Below are positions 34,000-58,100 of a stretch of 64,000 nucleotides of DNA, piece after piece (the first letter of the stretch is position 1; each line of letters begins with the position of its first letter). This stretch comes from Candidatus Omnitrophota bacterium (GTDB lineage Bacteria; Omnitrophota; Gorgyraeia; Duberdicusellales; Duberdicusellaceae), in contig JAFGCB010000025.1 of the NCBI GenBank assembly GCA_016932855.1, forward strand, positions 118,987-182,986, given 5' to 3'. A program made the position numbers and the translations under genes. Under the pieces are notes generated by a model. It did no database searches and had not been told where the DNA came from. It worked only from the letters and a program-made list of their open reading frames with translations.

Positions 34000-35298
34000 T
34001 TAAGGCAGGCTTATGCTGCGGGTAAAGGCTTTGACTACTTCCGGGTCAAAGTGCGAGCCGGATTCCCGGCTGATTATTTTTAAGGCTTTTTTAAATTCAT
34101 AGGCTTTTCGATAAGGACGGTCGGAAACCAAAGCTTGAAAGCTATCGGCTAAGGCCACAACTTTAGCTTCAATAGGGATTTGATTATTTTTAAGTCCGTA
34201 AGGATAGCCATGGCCGTCGATTCTTTCGTGGTGGTAGAGGATAGACGGTATTATCTTAATAAGGGGGTGCAAGGGCCGCAATATTTCTGCGCCGATAACC
34301 GGATGTTTCTTTATTTTTTTAAACTCTTCTGCGGTAAGCTCGCCCGGTTTTTGCAAAATTGATTCCGGAATGCCTACTTTGCCCAGATCATGCAGCATCG
34401 CCGCATATCTGATTATTTCTAATTGTTGTTCTTCAAGATTAAGTTTGCGCCCGATGACCAAAGCTATTGTTACTGTTCTTTCGGTGTGTTCTGCCGTATA
34501 GAAATCCTTGGCTTTGATTGCGGTTGCAAAGGCGATGATTGTTTCGAGGGTTGTACGGTCAAGCATCGTAGTTAGCTGCAGGATTTTATTTTTTAGTTCA
34601 GTAACTTCGTGTTTGCCATTTGCATTGTCCTCGCTGGCCGCGGTGTTTTCCTTTAATTTTCGCAACGTGATTACTTTATTATTTTTCGCCTTTGAGCAGT
34701 TAAGGCATTGATTTAAGATCGAAAGCAGTATTTCTTCATTGGTTCCGTCTTCAGGATAAGTCACAAGCCCTATGCTTATTTGGAGACTTATCTTTTCTTT
34801 GCCGAAATATCTGAATTTAAGCTTTTCTTGAATCCGGCCGGCAAGCCTTGTCGCCTCTTCCTTGGAAGTATAGCTGCATATTACGATGAATTCATCTTCC
34901 TTTGATCTGGCTAGAATATCTCCGGTACGCAATTCGTTTTTTAAGAAACAAGCAAATTCGCGCAAGATTACATCTCCGCGCGATACGCCATAGATTTTAT
35001 TGATATTTTTAAATAGTTCTATGTCAATTTTTAGCAAGGATACCGAAAAATTATGCCTTTCGGCCTGAGTCAGGCTTTCCTTAAGGCGAAAGGCTAAATA
35101 TTTGGAGTTGTATAAGTCGGTTATAGTATCGATGAACGAAGACCGGGCCAGACGTTTGTTTAATTGCGCGATTTGGGCATTTTTTGAATTAAGCCTAAGT
35201 TTTAAATAAAATGCCCAGAATAAAACAGGAAATAGCGCTAGCCCTGTAAAGGGCAAGGGTTTTGAAAAAGTCTTTAGAAACTGGAGAAAATAGTCCAT
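34000..35298 (-). CDS. membrane-anchored degenerate-GGDEF / HD-GYP domain protein (putative c-di-GMP phosphodiesterase)
   Basis: 432 aa; N-terminal TM, GGDEF-like fold with the motif degenerated to SKEDEF, C-terminal HD-GYP (HDLGK ... HHERIDGHGYPYGL). Confidence 0.8.
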   Translation of the reverse strand: MDYFLQFLKTFSKPLPFTGLALFPVLFWAFYLKLRLNSKNAQIAQLNKRLARSSFIDTITDLYNSKYLAFRLKESLTQAERHNFSVSLLKIDIELFKNINKIYGVSRGDVILREFACFLKNELRTGDILARSKEDEFIVICSYTSKEEATRLAGRIQEKLKFRYFGKEKISLQISIGLVTYPEDGTNEEILLSILNQCLNCSKAKNNKVITLRKLKENTAASEDNANGKHEVTELKNKILQLTTMLDRTTLETIIAFATAIKAKDFYTAEHTERTVTIALVIGRKLNLEEQQLEIIRYAAMLHDLGKVGIPESILQKPGELTAEEFKKIKKHPVIGAEILRPLHPLIKIIPSILYHHERIDGHGYPYGLKNNQIPIEAKVVALADSFQALVSDRPYRKAYEFKKALKIISRESGSHFDPEVVKAFTRSISLP

Positions 35299-35416
35299 CT
35301 CCCTATTAATTTTTGAAAGCGTTTACATTATCCGTGGCAACGGTGTGCATTTAGAGTATAAAATATTCCCGGCTGCAAAATCAAGTCTTTAAGGCAAAAT
35401 AAGACAAATAATATTT

Positions 35417-44331: not shown

Positions 44332-44405
44332 GGCGGGATAGCTCAGGCTGGTAGAGCAAACGGCTCATACCCGTTCTGTCGGTGGTTCAAGTCCACTTCC
44401 CGCCA
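44332..44405 (+). tRNA. tRNA-Met (anticodon CAT; could alternatively be lysidine-modified tRNA-Ile2)
   Basis: GGCGGGA/TCCCGCC acceptor stem, GCTC..GAGC D stem, AACGG/CCGTT anticodon stem with loop CTCATAC, GGTGG-TTCAAGT-CCACT T arm, discriminator A; CCA not encoded. Confidence 0.85.
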
Positions 44406-47308: not shown

Positions 47309-47692
47309 ATGCCAGAGGACCGAAGAAGATTTGAACGCGCGAAATTTCCTATTGTTGTCAGATGGCGATGTTTGACAACTTTCGCTGAAGGCGACGCGTC
47401 TTTGCCGGATTTGGCGGAAGACATATCCGCAGGAGGCGTCTGCCTGGTGTTGTATGACGCATTGAAAGTGGGCGATGAAATCGAGCTTCAATTTTCATTA
47501 CTAGGTAAAGGAAACATTCAAACAAAGGCAAGGGTTGTTTGGGTCAGGCAAGCCCAAATGTTTAGCGGCGATTACAGGATGGTGAAATACTATGCCGGCC
47601 TTGAATTTATCGAAATGAGCCAGAAAGATAAAGAATTCATTAATCAGATCATCGCTCGATTAAAAAGAAATCCCGAACAGGCACAGGCTTAA
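47309..47692 (+). CDS. PilZ-domain c-di-GMP-binding protein
   Basis: 127 aa; RRRFER (RxxxR) followed by DISAGG (DxSxGG) PilZ signature. Confidence 0.8.
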   Translation: MPEDRRRFERAKFPIVVRWRCLTTFAEGDASLPDLAEDISAGGVCLVLYDALKVGDEIELQFSLLGKGNIQTKARVVWVRQAQMFSGDYRMVKYYAGLEFIEMSQKDKEFINQIIARLKRNPEQAQA

Positions 47693-47706
47693 ATGTAGGA
47701 GCAAAA

Positions 47707-48336
47707 ATGAAAAATGTTATGCGAACAGTTTTTGTTGTTCTTTTCCTAAGTTCTGGCGTTATCTTCGCTTTGGCCGAGACCGTTGCTGAAAAATCCTCTT
47801 TACCGGATATTTCAATCGAGGGCATTCTTTTTGATGAAAACAATCCAATGGTTGTAATCAACGGCAGGACTTTACGGATAGGCGATAATATCGAAGGGGC
47901 TGAAATAGTAGAGATTACCGAAAACGGGGTAAAGTTTGACTTTCAGGGGAATTTCTATACAAAGACGCTCAATGTCGGAAAGCCCGGTCCGGTGATACGC
48001 AAACAGGAAAGTTTTTTTGAGAAGGTTAAGAAAAGTTTGAGTAAATTCTTTACCAAAGAAAAAAGCCCTACGGAACAAATAAACGCTTCGAAAGTATCGC
48101 GGTTTCAAAGACACAAGGAACTGGCTTACCGCTATTCGCGGGATGCTCAAAAAAGATCTCGTTCTGACCCCGTGGGGGCTGCGGCCTTGTATGGAAAAGC
48201 GCACCGGGAAGCTCAGATGGCTTACAAGGCTGTTCCCGGTAAAGGTAAATATGCCGATATTGAGAGGAAGAAAATGTTTAACTTAGCCAACGATTGCTTG
48301 GAACAGCAGGAAGCTTGTCAAAGATTAATGCGGTAA
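47707..48336 (+). CDS. secreted protein with PilP/GspC-like beta domain and basic C-terminal tail
   Basis: 209 aa; signal peptide (MKNVMRTVFVVLFLSSGVIFALA), segment L..ISIEGILFDENNPMVVINGRTLRIGDNIEGAEIVEITENGVKFDFQGNFY resembling the GspC-HR/PilP small beta domain, then a K/R-rich tail; 14 nt after PilZ. Confidence 0.4.
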   Translation: MKNVMRTVFVVLFLSSGVIFALAETVAEKSSLPDISIEGILFDENNPMVVINGRTLRIGDNIEGAEIVEITENGVKFDFQGNFYTKTLNVGKPGPVIRKQESFFEKVKKSLSKFFTKEKSPTEQINASKVSRFQRHKELAYRYSRDAQKRSRSDPVGAAALYGKAHREAQMAYKAVPGKGKYADIERKKMFNLANDCLEQQEACQRLMR

Positions 48337-48345
48337 ATCTACTCG

Positions 48346-48624
48346 TTGTTACAGAACTTAAGCAAGGAGGGTTATATGTTGGAAAATATCCCTTATGGCG
48401 AATATCTCGCCGGTTACATCGGAAATATAGTTTTGGTTTCATATTCAATGGCTGCGATGTTCAGTATCTTAGTTTTGGTTGTTTTGGAGATGACCGGGGA
48501 TAAGCTGAACCGCTTGGTGAAACGCATTTTTAGCGTAATCGCCTGGTTTAGCTTAATTTTTATTTTGTCCTACTGGGTCGGGAGTATTATACATACTTTA
48601 ATTGCCGCAGGCGGAAAAAGCTGA
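48346..48624 (+). CDS. small membrane protein (2 TM)
   Basis: 92 aa; two hydrophobic helices; GGAGG ribosome-binding site upstream. Confidence 0.45.
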   Translation: MLQNLSKEGYMLENIPYGEYLAGYIGNIVLVSYSMAAMFSILVLVVLEMTGDKLNRLVKRIFSVIAWFSLIFILSYWVGSIIHTLIAAGGKS

Positions 48625-48688
48625 ATGGCCGTCGTTGTATTGTTAATAAACTTTCTTTGATAGTCTAGGGTTTATTCTTTATCACAAA

Positions 48689-49012
48689 ATGTTTAAATTT
48701 AAAAAAACGGTCCGATTTTACCCTTTTATTTTTATTTTGGCCGCCAGCTTTGCCTTTGCTGAAAACGACAAAAAAGAGGATGTGCCTCCAGGAATGGAAG
48801 TAATTGAGGTGGGACAAACCAAAGTTGTTGTGCCTAAAGATTCGCAAATCCGTAAAGAAGGCGGATTGATAATACTTGAAAGCCCCAATCAATACGTGGC
48901 CAGGCGGCTCGTAGATTTTGACCAGCGTCTTTCGCTTCTAGAAAAACAAACACTAGAGCTTAAAAACCAGATTGGCCAGTTAGAAAAAGCTCTGGAAGAC
49001 GTAAAAGAATAA
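48689..49012 (+). CDS. small secreted coiled-coil protein
   Basis: 107 aa; signal peptide (FIFILAASFAFA), C-terminal heptad-like LLEKQTLELKNQIGQLEKALEDV. Confidence 0.45.
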   Translation: MFKFKKTVRFYPFIFILAASFAFAENDKKEDVPPGMEVIEVGQTKVVVPKDSQIRKEGGLIILESPNQYVARRLVDFDQRLSLLEKQTLELKNQIGQLEKALEDVKE

Positions 49013-49619: not shown

Positions 49620-50006
49620 ATGCTATTCTGGAAAAAAAAGAAAAAAATATTGATAATCGAGGATAACGAAGATTTAGTTATCTTTTTGAAAAAAATCCTC
49701 GAATCCGAGGGCTATACGGTTTTTTCGGTTACTCGCGGAGAAGGGGCTATAGATCTTGCCATAGCTAACAAGCCCGACGTAATACTTTTAGACATACTTT
49801 TGCCTGATATTCCCGGAGCAGAGGTAGAGCGTTTATTAAAAGAGGCTCCTCCTACCCGCAACATCCCGATAGTATATATGACTGCCTTGGTAAGCAGAGA
49901 AGATGAAGAAAACTCCAAACGGCCTGAGAGTACCCGCCTTTTATTAGCTAAACCCGTTACTAAAGATAGGCTTCTTCAGGCAATACGCAGCGCCGTCGCA
50001 AAATAA
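49620..50006 (+). CDS. single-domain response regulator (CheY-like receiver)
   Basis: 128 aa; ILIIEDNEDL..., D.ILLD (phospho-Asp), conserved T and K positions. Confidence 0.8.
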   Translation: MLFWKKKKKILIIEDNEDLVIFLKKILESEGYTVFSVTRGEGAIDLAIANKPDVILLDILLPDIPGAEVERLLKEAPPTRNIPIVYMTALVSREDEENSKRPESTRLLLAKPVTKDRLLQAIRSAVAK

Positions 50007-50063: not shown

Positions 50064-50432
50064 TTAGGAAATTGCGGAGTTTATCACGGTGACCAATTCA
50101 CTCAGCCTAACTGGTTTAGTGAGTATTTTGTGGTCGTGGGGGTTAAGTCCTGCTTTTTCTATTTCGTCGTAGGATATTAAGGCTGTCACAAAAATAAAGG
50201 GTATGTTTTGCGTTTCTTTATTTTTTTTAAGTTCAATCGCAAGCTGAGATCCGTTTATTTCCGGCATCAATATGTCGAGAAGAATCAAGTCCGGTTGAAA
50301 CCGGGTAATTTCTTTGAAGCTTTCTTTAGCGTTGGAACATACCGCTACTGAAAACTTCCCGACTTTTTCCAATCCTTTCTTTACAAAAAAACAGAAATCT
50401 TTTTCGTCGTCAATAATAAGAACTTTTTTCAT
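50064..50432 (-). CDS. single-domain response regulator (CheY-like receiver)
   Basis: 122 aa; KVLIIDDEKDF, PDLILLDILMP, K at the expected position; 4-nt overlap with the upstream hybrid kinase. Confidence 0.8.
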   Translation of the reverse strand: MKKVLIIDDEKDFCFFVKKGLEKVGKFSVAVCSNAKESFKEITRFQPDLILLDILMPEINGSQLAIELKKNKETQNIPFIFVTALISYDEIEKAGLNPHDHKILTKPVRLSELVTVINSAIS

Positions 50433-51589
50433 TCTTTGTTTTTTCGGGTTAAAGGCAGGATTATTCTGACTTCCGTACCTTTGCTGATTTTGCTTTCGAT
50501 AAGCAGGTTACCGTTGTGGTTATCGAGGATAGTCTTTGCGATTGATAATCCTAAACCTGTGCCTTTCTTGTCTCGCTTGGTCGTAAAAAAAGGTTCAAAA
50601 AGCTTTGGCAGCATATCTTGGGAAATGCCTTGTCCTGTATCTTTAATTTTTATAAAGCAGGATGATTGGCCGGTATTTTGGTCATTAATCCAAGTGCCGG
50701 TAGTGATTGTGATCGTACCGCCTTGAGGCATCGATTCAACGGCATTCATCAAAATATTAAATAAAACCTGCTGTATTTGATTTTTATCAGCGTTAATGCC
50801 GATATCTTGATCAAACTCCGTTTTTATTTCAATATTTTTTAAGGGACAACGGTATTTCATAAGAGCGAGAGTTTCATTTATTATATCTTCCGGTTTAAGC
50901 AGAGTGAATTCGGCCTCCGAGGGTTTAGCGAATTTTAAAAGGCCTTGTATAATCGAATCCGCTCTTAGGGTAGCTTCTTTTATTTTCGTCATCGCCATTT
51001 TGGTGTCTCCGCTGGCGTTAGAAAGGGTCAATTCCAAGAACTCTATTCCGCCGAGGATTACCGCCAGGGGGTTTTTTACTTCATGAGCTATTCCCGAAGA
51101 AAAAGTTCCCAGTGCCGCAAGTTTCTCCGATTGAATTAATTCTTTTTGGGTTTCTTTTAGTTTACTATACGCCTCGCTTACTTCTGTTTCGAGGCGTTCC
51201 TTGTCTTTTTTCATCCTGTATTTGTCAAGGGATTTCTCAATAACCGCTTGTAAAGTTTCTCCGTAAGCGACATCCTTAACCACGTAATCGTACGCACCTT
51301 CCTTCATAAAGTCGACCGCTACCTTTTCGCTGCCTGACGCCGTAACTACAATAAACGGAATATCTATTTCTGCCTTTCGTAATTCGCGCAGCACATCCAG
51401 GCCGGTTAAATCCGGCATACGATAATCACAGAGGATTACATGCGGCCTTTCTTCGATCGCCTTCTTCAACCCTTCGCGAGAATCAGATACAAAATCAGCC
51501 TGATAATTGTTATCGACTTGCTCTAGAATCGTTTTTGTAAGAAAAGCGTGGTCTTTCTCGTCGTCGATTATTAATATCTTTACTGGCAT
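50429..51589 (-). CDS. hybrid response regulator-histidine kinase (REC-HisKA-HATPase_c), cytoplasmic
   Basis: 386 aa; N-terminal REC (ILIIDDEKDHAF...ILCDYRMPD), H-box GIAHEVKNPL, G-box GTGLGLSIAK; no TM. Confidence 0.85.
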   Translation of the reverse strand: MPVKILIIDDEKDHAFLTKTILEQVDNNYQADFVSDSREGLKKAIEERPHVILCDYRMPDLTGLDVLRELRKAEIDIPFIVVTASGSEKVAVDFMKEGAYDYVVKDVAYGETLQAVIEKSLDKYRMKKDKERLETEVSEAYSKLKETQKELIQSEKLAALGTFSSGIAHEVKNPLAVILGGIEFLELTLSNASGDTKMAMTKIKEATLRADSIIQGLLKFAKPSEAEFTLLKPEDIINETLALMKYRCPLKNIEIKTEFDQDIGINADKNQIQQVLFNILMNAVESMPQGGTITITTGTWINDQNTGQSSCFIKIKDTGQGISQDMLPKLFEPFFTTKRDKKGTGLGLSIAKTILDNHNGNLLIESKISKGTEVRIILPLTRKNKE

Positions 51590-51843
51590 ATAAAATTCTC
51601 CTTTACTTTAAACGCTGTACGCATATTATACATTTCCGGCCGCAAATTAACAATAATTAGTTTCTTTAAAAAAAGGGGGCTTTTATTTATTCCGCCGGCG
51701 AGAATAGAAAGAAAATAGAAGCGCCTTTTCTTCGGCTGCGAACCATGCATTTTTATGGCTCCGTTTGCCAGGTTTTAGCGATAATTTTATTGAAAAATGT
51801 TACTGAAGTGATAGAATGCAAATAGAGATATAGACAATAAGGT

Positions 51844-52185
51844 TTGATTATGAGTATAGTAGTCATTCGCAATACACTGCGAAAATTGTTTTCCCAACAT
51901 TTAGAAAGCCTTAAGGATTTTCAGTTTTCTTTTCGCAACCATCTATTCTGGATTTTTGTTCTTGTTTTATTCGTTATTCTGACACGTTTTTGGAAAGCCA
52001 AAAAAGCCTTTTCTTTTTGTTTCGTAACAGTTGCCCTTCTTTTGCTTACCACTAAAGCCGAAGAACTCCTGGGTGCCTGGCTTACTAATTCCGGTGAAAC
52101 TTTTGATCCTTTGCTCATTAGAGCAGTATCTGCTTTTTTGATTTTCATCATATTTTTTTATTATTCAATAATACGAGAAGAATAA
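51844..52185 (+). CDS. small polytopic membrane protein
   Basis: 113 aa; three predicted hydrophobic helices. Confidence 0.4.
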   Translation: MIMSIVVIRNTLRKLFSQHLESLKDFQFSFRNHLFWIFVLVLFVILTRFWKAKKAFSFCFVTVALLLLTTKAEELLGAWLTNSGETFDPLLIRAVSAFLIFIIFFYYSIIREE

Positions 52186-52221
52186 AAACCTTTGTTTTAT
52201 CAGATTCGTTGAGGAGAAGAA

Positions 52222-52602
52222 ATGGGCGATCTTTTCGATAATACAGAAAATTTATTTGTTAAATTAGCTAAATTTGAAGAGGTTTATCATCAGCTTAAAG
52301 ATGCAATTATCGAATGGACCGAGAAAGGTCAAGGCGTATATCATTGGACAGACGCCGATTCTAAGCAGTACGAACATAAGGCAAGCATGAAGCAAAACGG
52401 AGCCCTCATAAGATGCAGTAATCCTCGGTGCCGCCAGGGCGGATTCAATCTGGAACAGGAGCTTTCCTCGTTAGCCGTGGGCAAACAGAAAAAAATTAAG
52501 AATTTTAAAAAATGCATGGGTTTCGAGCAGGCAACGCCCGGTCAAAACCGGATAAACTGTCTGAACGGCATAGATTATAAGATAACCCTTGTTTACAAAT
52601 AA
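52222..52602 (+). CDS. hypothetical Cys-cluster (zinc-ribbon-like) protein
   Basis: 126 aa; CSNPRC...C...C arrangement; no other motif. Confidence 0.4.
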   Translation: MGDLFDNTENLFVKLAKFEEVYHQLKDAIIEWTEKGQGVYHWTDADSKQYEHKASMKQNGALIRCSNPRCRQGGFNLEQELSSLAVGKQKKIKNFKKCMGFEQATPGQNRINCLNGIDYKITLVYK

Positions 52603-52629
52603 AAGTTTCATTACCTTGATAGTTTTTCA

Positions 52630-52968
52630 ATGCAGGAAAGACGAAGATTCGTAAGAATACCTGAACGGCTGGCTATAGCCTATAAAATTCTGCCCAGCGA
52701 CAAACCAGCCGGGTTTCTTACCAAAAACATAAGCCAGGCAGGATTAAGGTTTTTCGTTCATGATTTCGTTAAACCCGCTAGCCTTTTGGAAGTAAGGGTT
52801 AGTTTTGAAAAAGTACGCTTTTCTTTGGAAGCGATTGCTCGGGTTGTCTGGGTTGAAAAAGAGGCTCATAGCGAGCGCTATGAAGTCGGCGTGGAATTTG
52901 CAACAATATCGAAAAAAGCTGCGTCTCAGCTTATTTCCTACATTGAAACAATCCTGAAAACCAAGTAG
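52630..52968 (+). CDS. PilZ-domain c-di-GMP-binding protein
   Basis: 112 aa; RRRFVR (RxxxR) and NISQAG (variant DxSxGG). Confidence 0.75.
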   Translation: MQERRRFVRIPERLAIAYKILPSDKPAGFLTKNISQAGLRFFVHDFVKPASLLEVRVSFEKVRFSLEAIARVVWVEKEAHSERYEVGVEFATISKKAASQLISYIETILKTK

Positions 52969-53036
52969 TCCTTACCCGCCTTACTCTGTCATTTTTTTAA
53001 AGCGGTTTTAGCTGGTATTTCAGGCAATATAGACCT

Positions 53037-54224
53037 ATGGAGCAAACAAAAAGAATTCTTCTTATTTGCAGGGATAAAAATCTTAACGAAATTATCTATT
53101 TTTGCCTTGAAGGCTGGGGATATGAGGTGTGCATACTGGCCGATGAAGTCATATTCCTTGAGCAAATTAAAAAAACAGAACCGGATTTGTTGATTGTTGA
53201 CTTTCCGCATCCTTATAAGGAACGCCTGAATTTTTGTCAGCAAATAAAGAACGATTTCATCACTAAATCGATTCCGGTTGTCGTATTAATTGACAGGCGT
53301 CAGCTGCGCAAACATCTTCTTTCTCTGGAGCATGGGATAGACGACTATCTTTTAAAGCCGCCTGACCCCCTCGATCTAAGGGTTAGAGTCGAGATGGCCA
53401 TGCGACGCACTCAGTATAGTTTTTACACTAACTCTTTGACTAATCTTCCCGGGGGAAGGATAATCGAAGAGATTCTTAAAGAAAAAATTTCGAAAAAAGA
53501 GAAATTTTCTTCAGCCCATATTGATATCGATAATTTTAAGTATTTTAATGACCGGTACGGTTACCTGAAAGGGGATCGAGCAATAACACAAACTGCATAT
53601 ATTTTGCATCAGACAGTGCAACGCTTCGGCACGAACAAAGATTTCATCGGCCATATCGGAGGAGACGATTTTGTTTTCATAACGTCGCTTGATGAAGAAG
53701 AGGCTGTGGCTTCGGAATTTATCCGGCAGTTTGATCGCCTTATCCCTTTGCATTATTCAAAAGAGGATCGCGTACGCGGTTATATTAATATCGAGGATAG
53801 ATTAGGGGCTGAGCGTAAAATACCCCTTATGAGTGTTTCAGTCGCAATCGTAAATAATAGAGGTGCGGACTTTAGCAATACTGTTCAGATAAACGAAGCT
53901 TTGGCCAGTCTTAAATCCTATCTTAAAAAAATGCCCGGAAGTAATTTTATGGTCGACAGAAGATTGGCGGATAAGGGAATAAATAAAAGGTCCGAAGCCC
54001 AGACATTTTTGAAAGCTTGCCGGCGGAAGGTTTGTCGAGGAAAGAACACCAAGCCCTTGGGGCAAATCCTGCTTGATAAAGGGATACTGAACAGCGATAC
54101 TCTTGAAAAAAACCTGGATATACATTTTCGACGAGGTCTTCCTTTAGGCGAAGTCCTAAAAGACAGCGGCGTAATCGATGGCCGCGAGCTTGCAGCTGTT
54201 TTATCCTGGCAGCAGCGATCTTAA
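53037..54224 (+). CDS. receiver - degenerate GGDEF (GGDDF) - MshEN-like c-di-GMP-binding domain protein
   Basis: 395 aa; REC-like N-terminus (LLIVDF phospho-Asp region), GGDEF fold with GGDDF in place of GG[DE]EF and no RxxD I-site, C-terminal tandem MshEN motifs PLGQILLDKGILNSDTLEKNL.. and PLGEVLKDSGVIDGRELAAVLSWQ. Confidence 0.7.
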   Translation: MEQTKRILLICRDKNLNEIIYFCLEGWGYEVCILADEVIFLEQIKKTEPDLLIVDFPHPYKERLNFCQQIKNDFITKSIPVVVLIDRRQLRKHLLSLEHGIDDYLLKPPDPLDLRVRVEMAMRRTQYSFYTNSLTNLPGGRIIEEILKEKISKKEKFSSAHIDIDNFKYFNDRYGYLKGDRAITQTAYILHQTVQRFGTNKDFIGHIGGDDFVFITSLDEEEAVASEFIRQFDRLIPLHYSKEDRVRGYINIEDRLGAERKIPLMSVSVAIVNNRGADFSNTVQINEALASLKSYLKKMPGSNFMVDRRLADKGINKRSEAQTFLKACRRKVCRGKNTKPLGQILLDKGILNSDTLEKNLDIHFRRGLPLGEVLKDSGVIDGRELAAVLSWQQRS

Positions 54225-54237
54225 CCTTTTAAAGATA

Positions 54238-54594
54238 GTGAATTTGTATAAAAATAGGTTAATTTTTGCATTAATTGTATTATCTGGCATTATTTGTCTA
54301 AGTTCTTGTAGTAGAACGCGGGGTTACTCTTCTACCCAAAGCGCCCTTACTGAAATTGGTTCGGCTGTAAGCCCCGGTAAATCAAAAACTTCAAAGAGTG
54401 CAGTTATTATCGAAAATATTTTAATTGATCGAAAAGACACTAAAGAAAGCGTGGAAAAGAAAATAGGCAAGCCTTCCTATATCGGCACTACTATCGAAGG
54501 TTTTCAATTCTATCGTTACGAGGATAAACACATAGAAATTTACTTTAGCGGCAATCGAGTGGTAGGTTGGAATGACCTTTATTTTCGACCGTGA
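54238..54594 (+). CDS. putative lipoprotein
   Basis: Proposed GTG start at 54238, just after the upstream stop; the track ATG at 54178 overlaps the preceding gene. Signal plus lipobox LSSC; 118 aa. Confidence 0.4.
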   Translation: MNLYKNRLIFALIVLSGIICLSSCSRTRGYSSTQSALTEIGSAVSPGKSKTSKSAVIIENILIDRKDTKESVEKKIGKPSYIGTTIEGFQFYRYEDKHIEIYFSGNRVVGWNDLYFRP

Positions 54595-54603
54595 GGGCAA
54601 AAA

Positions 54604-55884
54604 TTATTGCCCGGCCGAAAGTTTTTTGTTTAGTTGACGTGTATAATCTTTTATCCAGTAGAATTCCTTTAAAGCCTGCGGCCGGCTTGAAAAAAATATG
54701 GAATTGTTATGCAGCAGGGGATCGGCAAACATATTTTCATAATCCTTAAAAATCTTTGTTTTAGGCGTTATGGCGAATTCCGCAAGAGACACCCTGGCTC
54801 CCTGAGAATTAAGGAAATCTATCTCTTTCTTAAGTTCTTCCAAATCTTGATCAGGATAGCCTAAAAGTAAATAGAGGCTGAACTCACCGTTTTTAAACCC
54901 CGCTTTTTTTAATGTTTTCACGCCTTTTTCCACCTCGCTTAAATTTACTTTATCGCCCCATTTTTTTTGCAAGCTTGGATTCAATGTTTCCAGTCCGAAA
55001 TGTGGGTTGGTAAACCCCGTTCTTTTTAGCAGGCTGGCGGTTTCCTCATCCAGAAATCGCAAATGCAGGGCATTGGGGGTGTGAAATCTGACATTAATTT
55101 TTGCTTCTAGAATTTTTCGCAACAGGCTTTTTATGTATTTGTTTTCGTAAAGAAGGGCATCATCATAAAATACGAAATCGCCTATTCCTTTCCTGCAGTA
55201 TTTTAAAATAAACTTTATAACCTTTTCTTGGGAGATTCGGAAAAAACCATCGGATAATTCGTTTATCGCGCAATAGCTGCAGCTAAACGGGCATCCCCAG
55301 CTGGTCCGCAAAACCACGTAATCAAGCTTGTGATAAAAGTCTTCATATCGTGGTAAAGTGGAAAATAATTCTTTCGGCTCATAACCGATGTTAAAAAGTT
55401 CAAAAAAGCCGTTCAGCTTTCTGTTTTCGAACAAATAATCACACCCAATTATTGACTCTGCGTGGCTGTGACAAAGCGTGGCGTATGTGCCCCCTAATAT
55501 TATCGGGGTACCGGGATGATGCGTTTTAAGAATTTTAATGACTTCACTTATTGCCGGATACCAATAAGTCATAGAGGAGGTTATGAGTATAAAATCCGGC
55601 TTGGTCTTTTTTATTTCCGATTCGACCTCGGCTATAGTTTTTCCGTAACGCTTAAAATAGCGCGGCACCGATTCAAGAAGCTTCGGCTTAGCGATCCGCT
55701 CCGAATAGTATTTGCCTCTGCCGAACGGATCTTTAGAAATTTTTTTATCCAAGCAATCAATAAAATCGATTCTGTTTTGTTTGGTTTTTAAATAAGATAG
55801 GATCGAGAGAAATCCATACGGTTTAAGCCAAAAATCATAAGCCGCAAAATCATATATCCAGGGATTTATCGCTAAAATCCGCAT
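54604..55884 (-). CDS. B12-binding-domain radical SAM protein
   Basis: 426 aa; N-terminal cobalamin-binding-like domain, CPFSCSYC (CxxxCxxC) radical SAM cluster motif. Confidence 0.75.
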   Translation of the reverse strand: MRILAINPWIYDFAAYDFWLKPYGFLSILSYLKTKQNRIDFIDCLDKKISKDPFGRGKYYSERIAKPKLLESVPRYFKRYGKTIAEVESEIKKTKPDFILITSSMTYWYPAISEVIKILKTHHPGTPIILGGTYATLCHSHAESIIGCDYLFENRKLNGFFELFNIGYEPKELFSTLPRYEDFYHKLDYVVLRTSWGCPFSCSYCAINELSDGFFRISQEKVIKFILKYCRKGIGDFVFYDDALLYENKYIKSLLRKILEAKINVRFHTPNALHLRFLDEETASLLKRTGFTNPHFGLETLNPSLQKKWGDKVNLSEVEKGVKTLKKAGFKNGEFSLYLLLGYPDQDLEELKKEIDFLNSQGARVSLAEFAITPKTKIFKDYENMFADPLLHNNSIFFSSRPQALKEFYWIKDYTRQLNKKLSAGQ

Positions 55885-56020
55885 ATAACTCGACTTTTTG
55901 AATAAATTGCAAATTGTTTTGCCTATGCTATAATTTTTAAGAGTTTGGTTGACCTTTTAAAGGTTTCCTAAGGCGTCAAGAAAAACCGCGTCTAAAATAA
56001 AAGAACGGAGGTTTAAACAC

Positions 56021-56401
56021 ATGGGTGTGCCACGAGGATTATTGTATACTAAAGATCATGAATGGGCAAGAATCGAACAAAACAATGCTATGGTCGGGAT
56101 AACCTACTATGCGCAGTCTCATTTAGGAGATGTTACGTTTGTTGGTTTACCCCAGCTTGGCAAATCCTTTTCCCAATTCGAAACAATCGCTACCATTGAG
56201 TCAACTAAAGCGGCCGTGGAAATACACAGTCCTTTGTCGGGCAAGGTTATAAAAATAAACGAAAGCCTTACATCAAATCCTGAATTGATAAACCGGTCGC
56301 CTTACGATCAGGGTTGGCTTGCGGTCTTAGAGATCAATAGGGACAGCGAAGAAAAAAATCTTTTAACAGCCGGCCAATACGACATTTTTTTGGAAACCTG
56401 A
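56021..56401 (+). CDS. gcvH: glycine cleavage system H protein (lipoyl carrier)
   Basis: 126 aa; YTK.HEW...., G.T.YAQ..LGD, lipoyl-lysine region IESTKAA, PY..GW. Confidence 0.88.
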   Translation: MGVPRGLLYTKDHEWARIEQNNAMVGITYYAQSHLGDVTFVGLPQLGKSFSQFETIATIESTKAAVEIHSPLSGKVIKINESLTSNPELINRSPYDQGWLAVLEINRDSEEKNLLTAGQYDIFLET

Positions 56402-56427
56402 GCTGAGGCGCAGCGCAATTAAAAAAT

Positions 56428-57243
56428 ATGGCAATTTGGAGATTGATAAATTCCGGCCCGGCGAGCCCCTATGAAAATATGGCTTATGACGAGTCTTTAT
56501 TTTATAATTACGAGAGACATCAAAAGCCGACTCTCAGGATTTATTCATGGTGCTATCCGAGCTTTTCTCTGGGTTTTTCACAGAAGGCCGCTGATTCGCT
56601 CTATTTAGATCGGTTCAGGGATAAAAAAGTTTCTTTTGTCAGAAGAATAACTGCTGGTGGAATACTCTTGCACGATCACGACATTACGTACAGCGTCATC
56701 TGTTCCCAGAAAGATTTAGGCTCTTGTTTCGGTGTTAAGGAAAGCTTTAAGCATATCTGCGGCTTTCTGATTAATTTCTATGAGAAACTCGGACTTAAGG
56801 CTTATTTTTGTGGCGATGTCAACAAAAAAACCTCTGGTTTAAGCTCTGTATTTTGTCTCGATTCTTTTCAAGATTATGATATTTTAATCGGTTCTAAAAA
56901 AATCGGCGGTAACGCTCAACGTCGAAAAAAAGATTTAATTCTGCAGCACGGTTCGATTCCTTTCCGGCTTGATTTTACAAAAATTCGAGAGTTTATAAAG
57001 GGGGATTTGCCGGCCTTGGAAGCAAAAACAGCTTCTTTAAATGAGTTAATTTGCAATCAAGGCGGGCTGGATGCGCTTCTTGGTTTGTTCACGGAATCTT
57101 TTCAGGAAACTCTTTCCTGCAGGCTCGCGGAAAGCGAACCCACCGACAGCGAAACCCAATTTGCTCATTTTCTGGAAAAAGAAAAATACAGCAGTTTTTC
57201 TTGGAATGTATGCGGAATAACCCCCGCTTTAAGTTTGGTTTAA
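56428..57243 (+). CDS. lipoate-protein ligase/octanoyltransferase family protein (LipM/LplA-like BPL_LplA_LipB domain)
   Basis: 271 aa; BPL/LPL catalytic domain (RR.TAGG.L.HD.D.TYS, K..GNAQRR); position between gcvH and lipA fits the LipM-type relay. Confidence 0.7.
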   Translation: MAIWRLINSGPASPYENMAYDESLFYNYERHQKPTLRIYSWCYPSFSLGFSQKAADSLYLDRFRDKKVSFVRRITAGGILLHDHDITYSVICSQKDLGSCFGVKESFKHICGFLINFYEKLGLKAYFCGDVNKKTSGLSSVFCLDSFQDYDILIGSKKIGGNAQRRKKDLILQHGSIPFRLDFTKIREFIKGDLPALEAKTASLNELICNQGGLDALLGLFTESFQETLSCRLAESEPTDSETQFAHFLEKEKYSSFSWNVCGITPALSLV

Positions 57244-58100
57244 TGAGAAAACCCGGCTGGCTTAACAAAAAAATAGATTTTTCCCGCCTGAGATTCGTTG
57301 AGAAAACGTTAAAGGATTTAAATCTTTATACCGTCTGCCAGGAAGCAAGATGTCCGAATATTTCCGAATGTTTTCATAAAAATATAGCTACATTTTTAAT
57401 TTTGGGTAATATCTGCACCAGAGATTGCAGCTTTTGCGGGGTACGAAAAGGCCGCCCCCTATCCCCGGATATTGATGAGCCTGAAAGGGTCGCCAGGGCG
57501 GTAAGGCGGTTGAATCTGCGTTTTGTGGTTATTACAAGCGTTTGTCGCGATGACCTGCAAGACCAAGGGGTGTCGTTTTTTATTGACACTATAAAAAAAA
57601 TCCGTAAATTAAATTCCGGCGTCGATATTGAAACCCTTATTCCTGACTTTTCCGGCGATACAAATCTGATAAGAGCCTTGACTAAAAGTAAACCGAAAAT
57701 AATAAACCATAACCTTGAAACTATAAAAAGGCTTTACCCCTTGCTTAGGAAAAAATCAAATTATCATCGATCACTTGATGTTTTGCATTTTATAAAGACG
57801 GCTTCTCCTGAAGTATATACCAAATCCGGTATAATGCTGGGCTTCGGTGAGAGGGAAGATGAAGTAGTGCGGCTTTTGCAGGATTTGAGAAAAGTTAAGT
57901 GTGATTTTCTAAGCATGGGACAGTATCTTGCACCGACTAAAGGACATTTTCCGGTAAAAAAGTACATAGAAAAGGAACAATTCGAAAAATATCAAAAAAT
58001 TGCATTAAAGTTAGGCTTTCGGCACGTAATAAGTTTTCCGTATGCCCGTAGTTCTTTCGCCGCCTCAAGTTACACAACCAGCAAATCGATTATAGATTAA
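57243..58100 (+). CDS. lipA: lipoyl synthase
   Basis: Track ORF starts at 57051, but the LipA sequence begins at MRKPGWL (ATG 57243, ATGA overlap with the upstream stop). CQEARCPNISEC auxiliary cluster and CTRDCSFC radical SAM cluster. Confidence 0.9.
   Translation: MRKPGWLNKKIDFSRLRFVEKTLKDLNLYTVCQEARCPNISECFHKNIATFLILGNICTRDCSFCGVRKGRPLSPDIDEPERVARAVRRLNLRFVVITSVCRDDLQDQGVSFFIDTIKKIRKLNSGVDIETLIPDFSGDTNLIRALTKSKPKIINHNLETIKRLYPLLRKKSNYHRSLDVLHFIKTASPEVYTKSGIMLGFGEREDEVVRLLQDLRKVKCDFLSMGQYLAPTKGHFPVKKYIEKEQFEKYQKIALKLGFRHVISFPYARSSFAASSYTTSKSIID

Follow-up and report, generated by a model that had tools for sequence, protein, structure and literature searches.

A 64,000-nucleotide (nt) stretch of DNA of a Candidatus Omnitrophota bacterium (assembly GCA_016932855.1, contig JAFGCB010000025.1, positions 118,987 to 182,986 of the forward strand; this whole 64-kb stretch is called the window, and all nucleotide positions are counted from its first letter) contained a five-gene unit at 51844-54594. 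The analysis centered on the fourth gene of this unit, whose 395-amino-acid (aa) product was composed of an atypical receiver, a GGDEF-type domain with the signature GGDDF, and a C-terminal tail related to the MshEN_N module, a known binder of cyclic di-GMP (c-di-GMP). All five open reading frames (ORFs) lay on the + strand and proved to be conserved genes, as judged from the ORF listing together with the comparison with the related loci L005 and L006, the latter being the closest relative sampled; the initial annotation had described four same-strand genes (for proteins of 113 aa and 126 aa, a PilZ protein, and the 395-aa protein) followed by a small lipoprotein gene, and all of these ORFs were present where it had placed them. 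An NCBI protein from a metagenome-assembled genome was 100% identical to the 395-aa product and carried the annotation 'diguanylate cyclase'. The five genes were as follows:

51844..52185, + strand: small membrane protein, 113 aa as listed (ORF; 48% identical across 110 aa to gene 1 of the L006 cluster)
52222..52602, + strand: 126-aa soluble protein with CSNPRC ... C ... C (ORF; 50% identical to its L006 orthologue)
52630..52968, + strand: stand-alone PilZ protein, 112 aa (Pfam PilZ, 2.1e-12, 47.7 bits versus a cut-off of 22.5)
53037-54224, + strand: gene for the 395-aa protein (ORF; Response_reg, GGDEF, and MshEN_N-type tail)
54178..54594, + strand: small lipoprotein gene, 138 aa, lipobox LSSC, its first 47 nt shared with the end of the 395-aa gene

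The 395-aa protein displayed the order receiver-like domain, GGDEF domain, and C-terminal extension, as first described, and the Pfam domains and the structural model agreed on it. The Response_reg match covered residues 13-118 (36.3 bits versus a cut-off of 30.2), and the GGDEF match covered residues 132-231 (profile positions 4-105 of 161), with TIGR00254 of NCBIfam found at 1.4e-15. The AlphaFold model, made with a 115-sequence alignment, had a mean predicted local distance difference test (pLDDT) score of 89 and a predicted template modeling (pTM) score of 0.86, and it contained a (beta/alpha)5 receiver, a GGDEF fold that has an additional hairpin, a disordered linker, and four C-terminal helices at pLDDT ~95; the linker reached pLDDT ~51 over residues 311-330 and <50 over residues 319-324, and its length and sequence were variable in the alignment. 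The closest solved structures found by Foldseek were WspR, PleD, and DgcR (1e-16 to 5e-19). The components were delimited as follows:

53037..53408, + strand: residues 1-124, atypical (pseudo-)receiver (Pfam Response_reg, 7e-9; CheY alignment)
53409..53963, + strand: residues 125-309, GGDEF-type domain of the 'HIGGDDF' subfamily, ending in conserved DRR (Pfam GGDEF, 6.5e-15)
53658-53672, + strand: GGDDF signature (sequence)
53964..54050, + strand: residues 310-338, basic, poorly conserved linker, predicted to be disordered (AlphaFold and alignment)
54051..54221, + strand: residues 339-395, MshEN_N-type four-helix module (profile, fold, and conservation)
54054-54125, + strand: tail motif I, P340 to H363 (sequence)
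54126-54140, + strand: tail spacer FRRGL, 5 residues (sequence)
54141-54212, + strand: tail motif II, P369 to Q392, the protein ending 3 residues later (sequence)

The MshEN_N-type tail

The initial annotation had reported two tandem matches to the 24-residue MshEN motif and a C-terminal extension of MshEN-like character, and both points were confirmed: the two motifs were present, separated by the spacer FRRGL as in MshEN, which was far beyond chance, and the structural relationship to MshE was close. Searched against the PDB, a 34-sequence tail profile recovered Thermus PilF (1e-17), Vibrio cholerae MshE (5HTL, 1.2e-8), and GSPII-B entries (~4e-5), and the 5HTL match was exactly in register with MshE residues 8-61 (P340 = R9, G342 = G11, H363 = Q32, and G371 = G40); the single tail sequence recovered Thermus PilF at 2.8e-9 and MshE weakly. 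An AlphaFold model of the tail alone (pLDDT 91) formed four helices, and the fold search with it returned c-di-GMP-bound MshE 5HTL as the best match [template modeling (TM) score 0.86, root-mean-square deviation 0.8 A, 56 columns] and c-di-GMP-bound PilF GSPII-B as the next best (TM score 0.80, 1.0 A). Given the profile match, the fold match, and the long-tail relatives with a Pfam-detectable full MshEN (see below), the tail is, by homology and modeling, a genuine MshEN_N four-helix module of the c-di-GMP-binding type.

The profile comparison proposed together with the initial annotation, namely of the tail with MshEN/T2SSE_N, gave a split result: (i) T2SSE_N/MshEN (PF05157) was not matched by the tail alone in Pfam, even at E<=10, with only weak FumaraseC_C and DUF4388 hits obtained, because PF05157 models only the MshEN_C (T2SSE_N1) half, which had no counterpart in this tail; and (ii) PF05157 was matched by the long-tail relatives scanned, which came from a group of five proteins with 480-503 aa and a tail of ~180 aa. 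The three long-tail relatives scanned (L019, L022, and L027) each displayed the order REC, GGDEF, tandem motifs, and PF05157 (3e-11 to 3e-22; protein residues 396-479, 401-486, and 388-474, respectively). Since these relatives placed PF05157 C-terminal of the tandem motifs, the Pfam miss was a false negative and was dropped as evidence against MshEN homology. The 395-aa protein kept the MshEN_N half only, the MshEN_C subdomain being absent. The Pfam model named 'MshEN' omits the 53-residue c-di-GMP-binding four-helix part, so MshEN_N-only receptors go uncounted in Pfam-based censuses. In a separate search of a 5.8-billion-protein collection, the tail profile matched only proteins of 49-116 aa (E down to 1e-25), many of them metagenomic; some were contig-end fragments while others resembled stand-alone MshEN_N mini-proteins, and the search was uninformative on further fusion partners.

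The tail was then set beside known MshEN-type domains. It shared with the 53-residue MshEN_N of MshE (5HTL) and of Thermus PilF GSPII-B and GSPII-C the two 24-residue motifs, the 5-residue spacer, the L-G dipeptides, the turn Gly, the Leu clusters, and the fold, but the module is N-terminal on a secretion/pilus ATPase in MshE and PilF, while here it was C-terminal on a GGDEF-family protein and had no MshEN_C; the tail further differed by an invariant Pro first and an invariant His last in motif I, and by a conserved W-R/K-R/K-G in the spacer. Escherichia coli NfrB, a glycosyltransferase, carries its MshEN at the C-terminus as here, and its motif I starts with the nearly identical string (R/K)-PLGQILLE(N/K) and has no final Gln. 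NfrB and its dedicated cyclase DgcJ resemble the 395-aa protein in that cyclase and MshEN sensor form one physical unit, but they are two interacting proteins in which the sensor controls the glycosyltransferase, whereas the parts were fused here and no separate effector domain was present. [quoted passage not shown] The complex of the Xanthomonas citri PilB N-domain with PilZ (7LKM), third in the tail fold search, involves an MshEN-fold helical module contacting PilZ, but this N-domain had only 14-15% identity to the tail, includes MshEN_C, and belongs to a pilus ATPase.

Conservation within the tail followed the ligand-contact positions. Among the 115 tailed relatives, the Gly at motif position 3 was found in 115/115 in both motifs (G342 and G371), and the Leu residues were nearly as constant (L341 in 111/115, L356 and L360 in 115/115, L385 in 105/115, and L389 in 108/115), and the ligand-contact positions are under selection. 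Mutation of the same two Gly residues abolishes c-di-GMP binding by MshE, and the isolated MshEN_N of MshE (residues 1-62) binds c-di-GMP with a dissociation constant (Kd) of 0.35 uM, MshEN_C not being needed (PMC5013675). Some ligand-contact positions are lost in the non-binders XpsE and PilF GSPII-A. As predicted from sequence and fold, binding of c-di-GMP by the tail is plausible and somewhat more likely than not.

The departures of the tail from the RLG...Q consensus count against such binding. Motif I began with Pro340 (115/115) and ended with His363 (112/115) in place of Arg/Lys/Leu and Gln, respectively; motif II began with Pro369, a position filled across the family by I/V/L/M (72 of the 115), R (23), or P (13). 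[quoted passage not shown] The terminal Gln of motif II (Gln392) was kept in 73/115 relatives. Comparable departures occur in domains that bind: (i) PilF GSPII-B binds c-di-GMP at 6 nM despite Lys and Leu replacing both Arg residues; (ii) PilF GSPII-C, with Pro335 opening motif II, binds with about the same affinity as MshEN (Kd 500 nM) (PMC11731258); and (iii) E. coli NfrB, whose motif I (R-PLGQILLEN...ALRNR) has Pro in the first and Arg in the last position, is a specific c-di-GMP binder (Kd 1 uM; PMC8669469). Compared at the sequence level, every deviation of the tail from the consensus is matched by some binding domain.

The GGDDF domain, the receiver, and related loci

The signature GGDDF lay outside the accepted [G/A/S]G[D/E]E[F/Y], and the I-site position read TNKD with no RxxD, exactly as the initial annotation had it; its further statement that the domain was a degenerate cyclase, likely unable to make c-di-GMP, did not stand up to the comparison with relatives. 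D163, D165, K168, N171, D172, D180, H206, and GGDD were present in 115/115 tailed relatives, and the metal- and guanine-contact residues aligned to those of DgcZ and other solved cyclases. The string G-H-[IV]-GGDDF was found in the 120 full-length homologues listed, except for one that did not match the motif expression. A scan of species-representative genomes with the pattern GHIGGDDF yielded at least 600 relatives in many phyla; the invariance of GHIGGDDF in 80 genome loci was set aside as evidence, since ascertainment was at work and the string was the scan pattern itself.

An unbiased HMMER search was run with residues 125-312 against 1.84 billion representatives, giving 494 clusters at E<1e-30 from many phyla with the signature H-[IV]-GGDD-[FY]; residue counts were taken from the best 155 domain hits. 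In these 155 hits, the fourth signature residue (D211) was Asp in 153, the preceding His was found in 151, and the GGDD residues were found in 153-155; D163 was kept in 154, K168 in 147, N171 in 146, D172 in 148, and G209 in at least 146. Residues specific to the subfamily were similarly constant (Y240 149, R255 146, K293 146, K297 150, S302 147, and R309 133), while none of the 155 carried an I-site Arg. At the base-specificity position, 102 hits had Asp, 27 had Ser, and 23 had Asn, a variation like that of Hypr cyclases; the window protein has the guanine-specifying Asp180 there, so GTP is its predicted substrate and c-di-GMP its proposed product. On these patterns, GGDDF is not a product of decay: it is the signature that defines a large GGDEF subfamily spread across phyla.

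The HIGGDDF domain was placed behind receivers, modules of two transmembrane segments and HAMP (2TM-HAMP), and other inputs, usually with nothing C-terminal of it; a domain that serves so many sensor proteins as their sole output, and whose metal- and nucleotide-binding site is invariant, looks like an enzyme. A precedent is GSU1937 of Geobacter sulfurreducens, a TM-HAMP-GGDDF protein of the Hypr type, whose GGDDF domain makes cyclic GMP-AMP (cGAMP) and c-di-GMP in vivo and whose GADDF mutant is dead (PMC8835794). GSU1937 and the window protein shared the GGDDF signature and the absence of any other catalytic domain, but at the base-specificity position GSU1937 carries Ser, and it produces cGAMP, while the window protein has Asp180, with GTP as its only predicted substrate. 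A large 2TM-HAMP group with Ser at that position, from Deltaproteobacteria/Thermodesulfobacteriota, was found within the HIGGDDF subfamily and fits the description of GSU1937. PleD, WspR, and DgcR shared with the 395-aa protein the receiver-GGDEF order and the Mg and guanine contacts, but they have GG(D/E)EF, product inhibition through an RxxD I-site, and phosphorylatable receivers, while the 395-aa protein displayed HIGGDDF, no I-site, an altered receiver, an additional GGDEF-domain hairpin, and the MshEN_N tail. Judged from the conserved residues and from analogy to GSU1937, the GGDDF domain is on balance expected to be catalytically active.

Several points tell against that expectation. GSU1937 was assigned to the HIGGDDF subfamily, as a likely member, by its matching architecture and taxonomy and not by sequence comparison; cluster names in the subfamily read only 'Deltaproteobacteria bacterium', and no entry with a Geobacter sulfurreducens label was among those listed by the homology search. 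Over its last third the GGDEF domain was divergent, the Pfam match ending at position 105/161, and the phosphate-binding Arg of 'GRN' (AK..GRN) corresponded to the invariant Ser302, with K297 invariant; given this divergence and Ser302, the domain could make a different product or none at all. The invariant R255, K293, and R309 may substitute for the phosphate-binding Arg.

The 395-aa protein was the only candidate cyclase within the window, since the other GGDEF domain there read SKEDEF. That domain belongs to a GGDEF + HD-GYP protein at 34003-35322 (- strand), in which ND was changed to NK and the nucleotide-binding residues had drifted; it is truly degenerate and provides a negative control from within the window. 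The HDLGK and GYPYG motifs of the 34003-35322 protein were intact, which makes this protein a probable phosphodiesterase whose pseudo-cyclase domain would be regulatory.

For the receiver, the alignment with CheY and the other receivers of the window disclosed Cys11/Arg12 in place of the acidic pair (CheY Asp12/Asp13) and Ile85 in place of the conserved Thr (CheY Thr87). The 115 tailed relatives had mostly Ser at positions 11 and 12 (100 and 94, respectively) and Ile at position 85 (114). The 62 tail-less relatives (~310 aa), in contrast, harbored canonical receivers, with Asp at the acidic pair in 49 and 54, Asp55 in 62/62, 'MP' present, Thr in 51, and Lys in 56; the receivers of the long-tail forms were intermediate, two of them having no acceptor Asp. 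Receiver decay correlates with gain of the MshEN tail. From these substitutions, the receiver of the 395-aa protein is probably not phosphorylated in the conventional way, which runs counter to the phosphorylation gating initially suggested. Retained features speak on the other side: the phospho-acceptor Asp55 and Lys107, which align to CheY Asp57 and Lys109, were each kept in 113/115 tailed relatives, one tailed relative had a small HisKA-HATPase gene 2 nt upstream, and several tailed genes lay beside kinases or receivers, so phosphorylation might still occur. The tailed clade alone possessed an invariant Cys23 and a patch G26-W27-G28-Y29, all variable in tail-less relatives, and these may form a docking surface for the tail or a partner. 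Cys67 was conserved in tailed and tail-less groups alike; a disulfide or redox role for Cys23 and Cys67 was considered and set aside, as helices 1 and 3 should lie on opposite faces of the receiver fold.

Both paralogues, tailed and tail-less, were present in Omnitrophota. A PilZ gene was found within 4 kb at 6/21 distinct MshEN-tailed loci versus 0/66 tail-less loci (hypergeometric p ~1e-4), as counted with two Omnitrophota PilZ queries only, by which divergent PilZ genes may be missed. The four-gene layout recurred only in L006 and was not family-wide. Neighbors at other tailed loci included a small kinase, a STAS-PilZ protein, a REC-GAF-PAS-GGDEF-HD-GYP protein, receivers plus kinases, and a DHH-DHHA1 protein, and some tailed loci had nothing signaling-related adjoining. 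At many tail-less loci (e.g., L038 and L041), a GAF-HisKA-HATPase kinase of ~490 aa was located directly upstream, and an FIST_N+FIST_C protein of ~400 aa was found ~1.5 kb upstream in 16 genome loci; this gene order suggests a conserved sensory pathway feeding the paralogue with the canonical receiver.

Two side observations were made among the relatives. The DHH-DHHA1 protein (317-327 aa, NrnA-like; L012 3055-4008 and L008 3294-4277) was encoded directly upstream of the tailed gene, overlapping its start, in one relative and two genes upstream in another; the NrnA-like family degrades pGpG and other dinucleotides. L062, L074, and L080 (Roseiflexus, Chloroflexota) carried a second, FleQ-like receiver after the GGDDF domain and no MshEN tail, which is another mode of adding a C-terminal regulatory module.

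Proposed mechanism and alternatives

Given the observed architecture, the homology of the parts, the conservation patterns, and the correlation of tail gain with receiver decay, the following mechanism is proposed. The 395-aa protein would be an Omnitrophota-specific, tail-bearing paralogue in a widespread family of response-regulator cyclases that always display HIGGDDF; its receiver would have lost residues needed for Mg-dependent phosphorylation, and an MshEN-type module would have been added behind a flexible linker, here cut down to the four-helix MshEN_N half. The GGDDF domain would act as a working cyclase converting GTP to c-di-GMP, control would have moved from a kinase to c-di-GMP itself, and adjacent PilZ proteins might read the signal locally. 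The feedback is purely inferred: the tail would bind the product and act back on the enzyme, replacing the RxxD I-site, and either sign of the effect is possible. As a whole, a phosphorylation-independent GGDDF cyclase that is regulated by c-di-GMP via its tail and is often encoded near PilZ genes is the preferred reading, and it is put forward tentatively, on sequence, modeling, and analogy. A wider proposal, considered rather doubtful, is that HIGGDDF domains constitute a distinct cross-phylum class of nucleotide cyclases, with a chemistry that accepts or requires Asp at the fourth position and no use of an RxxD I-site, and that one Omnitrophota paralogue swapped its kinase for MshEN self-gating. 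If true, source and sensor of the signal would reside in a single autoregulated polypeptide (homeostatic or bistable) read by adjacent PilZ adaptors.

Two alternatives keep the tail as a c-di-GMP sensor and deny catalysis to the GGDDF domain. According to the model of the initial annotation, the GGDDF domain has no catalytic activity, and the protein would serve as a receptor for c-di-GMP, bound via the MshEN-like tail, with receiver phosphorylation as the switch. This model can draw on the departure of GGDDF from the accepted signature, on PA3258 (GGDDF-EAL), which has no cyclase phenotype, on the tail being a true MshEN_N, on the retained Asp55 and Lys107, and on the hybrid kinase and receivers encoded next door (see below); but GGDD and the Mg/GTP contacts were invariant across phyla in a domain that is usually the sole output, unlike the decayed SKEDEF domain of the same window, one GGDDF domain (GSU1937) has proven activity, and the receiver had neither the acidic pair nor the Thr that tail-less relatives keep. 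A receiver, a dead GGDEF domain, and MshEN_N would moreover leave the protein with no evident output, and the model is considered quite improbable. A related possibility is that the GGDDF domain senses GTP or another nucleotide without catalysis, and that the protein is a scaffold integrating GTP and c-di-GMP and signaling to the PilZ, transmembrane, or Cys4 proteins. Non-catalytic, GTP-sensing GGDEF domains such as CC3396 are known, and the nucleotide contacts were kept here while the GRN Arg was Ser302 and the C-terminal third was divergent; however, the metal- and catalytic-base carboxylates D163, D210, and D211 were invariant although mere binding does not require them, the invariant basic residues R255, K293, K297, and R309 could hold the triphosphate, and a GGDDF domain has precedent for activity. 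The scaffold is considered improbable.

The remaining alternative accepts the GGDDF domain as a local c-di-GMP source and questions the tail, which would be a protein-docking module that binds no nucleotide and tethers the enzyme to PilZ or to a pilus/secretion component. It gains from the PilB-N:PilZ complex 7LKM being among the top fold matches (TM score 0.71-0.73), from the enrichment of PilZ genes beside tailed members only, from the lack of an Arg/Lys/Leu opening either motif and the replacement of Gln by His, from the non-binder PilF GSPII-A being the closest single-sequence match in the PDB, and from the clade-specific patch H-W-R/K-R/K-G, which could be an interaction surface. Yet the invariant positions of the tail were the ligand-contacting Gly and Leu residues that are lost in XpsE and GSPII-A, the best structural match was the ligand-bound conformation of MshE, NfrB binds c-di-GMP with a nearly identical start of motif I (RPLGQILLEN), and a PilZ gene was near only 6/21 tailed loci. 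Docking without nucleotide binding is considered unlikely, and the self-sensing cyclase is retained as the preferred reading.

All component parts of the 395-aa protein are already known, and it is not a new kind of system. MshEN fusions listed earlier involve receivers, HD-GYP, CheA, adenylate/guanylate cyclases, and kinases, GGDEF not being in that list, and no GGDEF-MshEN fusion was named in the searchable literature. The HIGGDDF subfamily, its likely member GSU1937 aside, appears uncharacterised. Nearly all that is understood of how diguanylate cyclases respond to their own product concerns the RxxD I-site. If the preferred reading is true, I-site-less cyclases fused to MshEN would represent a second, independent route of self-sensing, and they would be the covalent counterpart of debated 'local signalling' pairs such as DgcJ-NfrB. 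In c-di-GMP censuses, GGDDF should not be counted as 'degenerate' by default; it marks a large and conserved multi-phylum subfamily. The locus also offers an entry point into signaling in Omnitrophota, a phylum without cultured model organisms.

Other genes of the unit and its surroundings

The features flanking the five genes were as follows:

51790..51817, + strand: promoter-like site (TTGAAA, 16 nt, TAGAAT, plus upstream TG), ~30 nt 5' of the likely start of gene 1
50429..51589, - strand: hybrid histidine kinase, REC-HisKA-HATPase (Pfam), divergent from the five-gene unit; same arrangement in L006
50064-50432, - strand, and 49620-50006, + strand: stand-alone receivers (Pfam) beyond the hybrid kinase; same arrangement in L006

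The promoter-like site was a consensus match only (10/12), the region having a total of 11 such sites versus 7.9 expected; promoter and terminator scans of the region were close to background and did not define the operon structure. The probable start of gene 1 is the ATG at 51850, giving 111 aa, since the Met of the L006 orthologue aligned to residue 3; its product matched no Pfam or NCBIfam family. The 126-aa protein had no Pfam/NCBIfam family above threshold; all four of its Cys residues were kept in the L006 orthologue, and it probably has a Cys4 metal site, as predicted from sequence. The PilZ protein was 61% identical to its L006 orthologue and contained the canonical c-di-GMP-binding motifs RRRFVR (RxxxR) and NISQAG [(D/N)xSxxG], in agreement with its initial description. 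The lipoprotein had 42% identity to a 123-aa ORF of L005 (lipobox SLGC) that displayed the same 47-nt overlap, and it was conserved from about residue 24, its true start probably being internal to the listed ORF; the lipoprotein gene was absent from L006. A scan of the window with Rfam gave no c-di-GMP riboswitch or other regulatory RNA, the sole match being a tRNA at 44332-44405 (+ strand).

The window contained another PilZ operon at 47309-49012 (+ strand), composed of a canonical PilZ gene (Pfam 2.4e-14; RRRFER / DISAGG) followed by genes for a secreted protein of 209 aa, a membrane protein of 92 aa, and a secreted coiled-coil protein of 107 aa, the last three without a Pfam family. L006 shared the whole neighborhood of the five-gene unit, from the divergent hybrid kinase and the receivers to the downstream genes. 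The latter, at 54604-58100, comprised a B12-binding radical SAM gene (- strand) and then genes for GcvH, lipoate-protein ligase (LplA), and lipoyl synthase (LipA); they were syntenic in L005 and L006, and this synteny looks like plain neighborhood conservation without an evident functional link.

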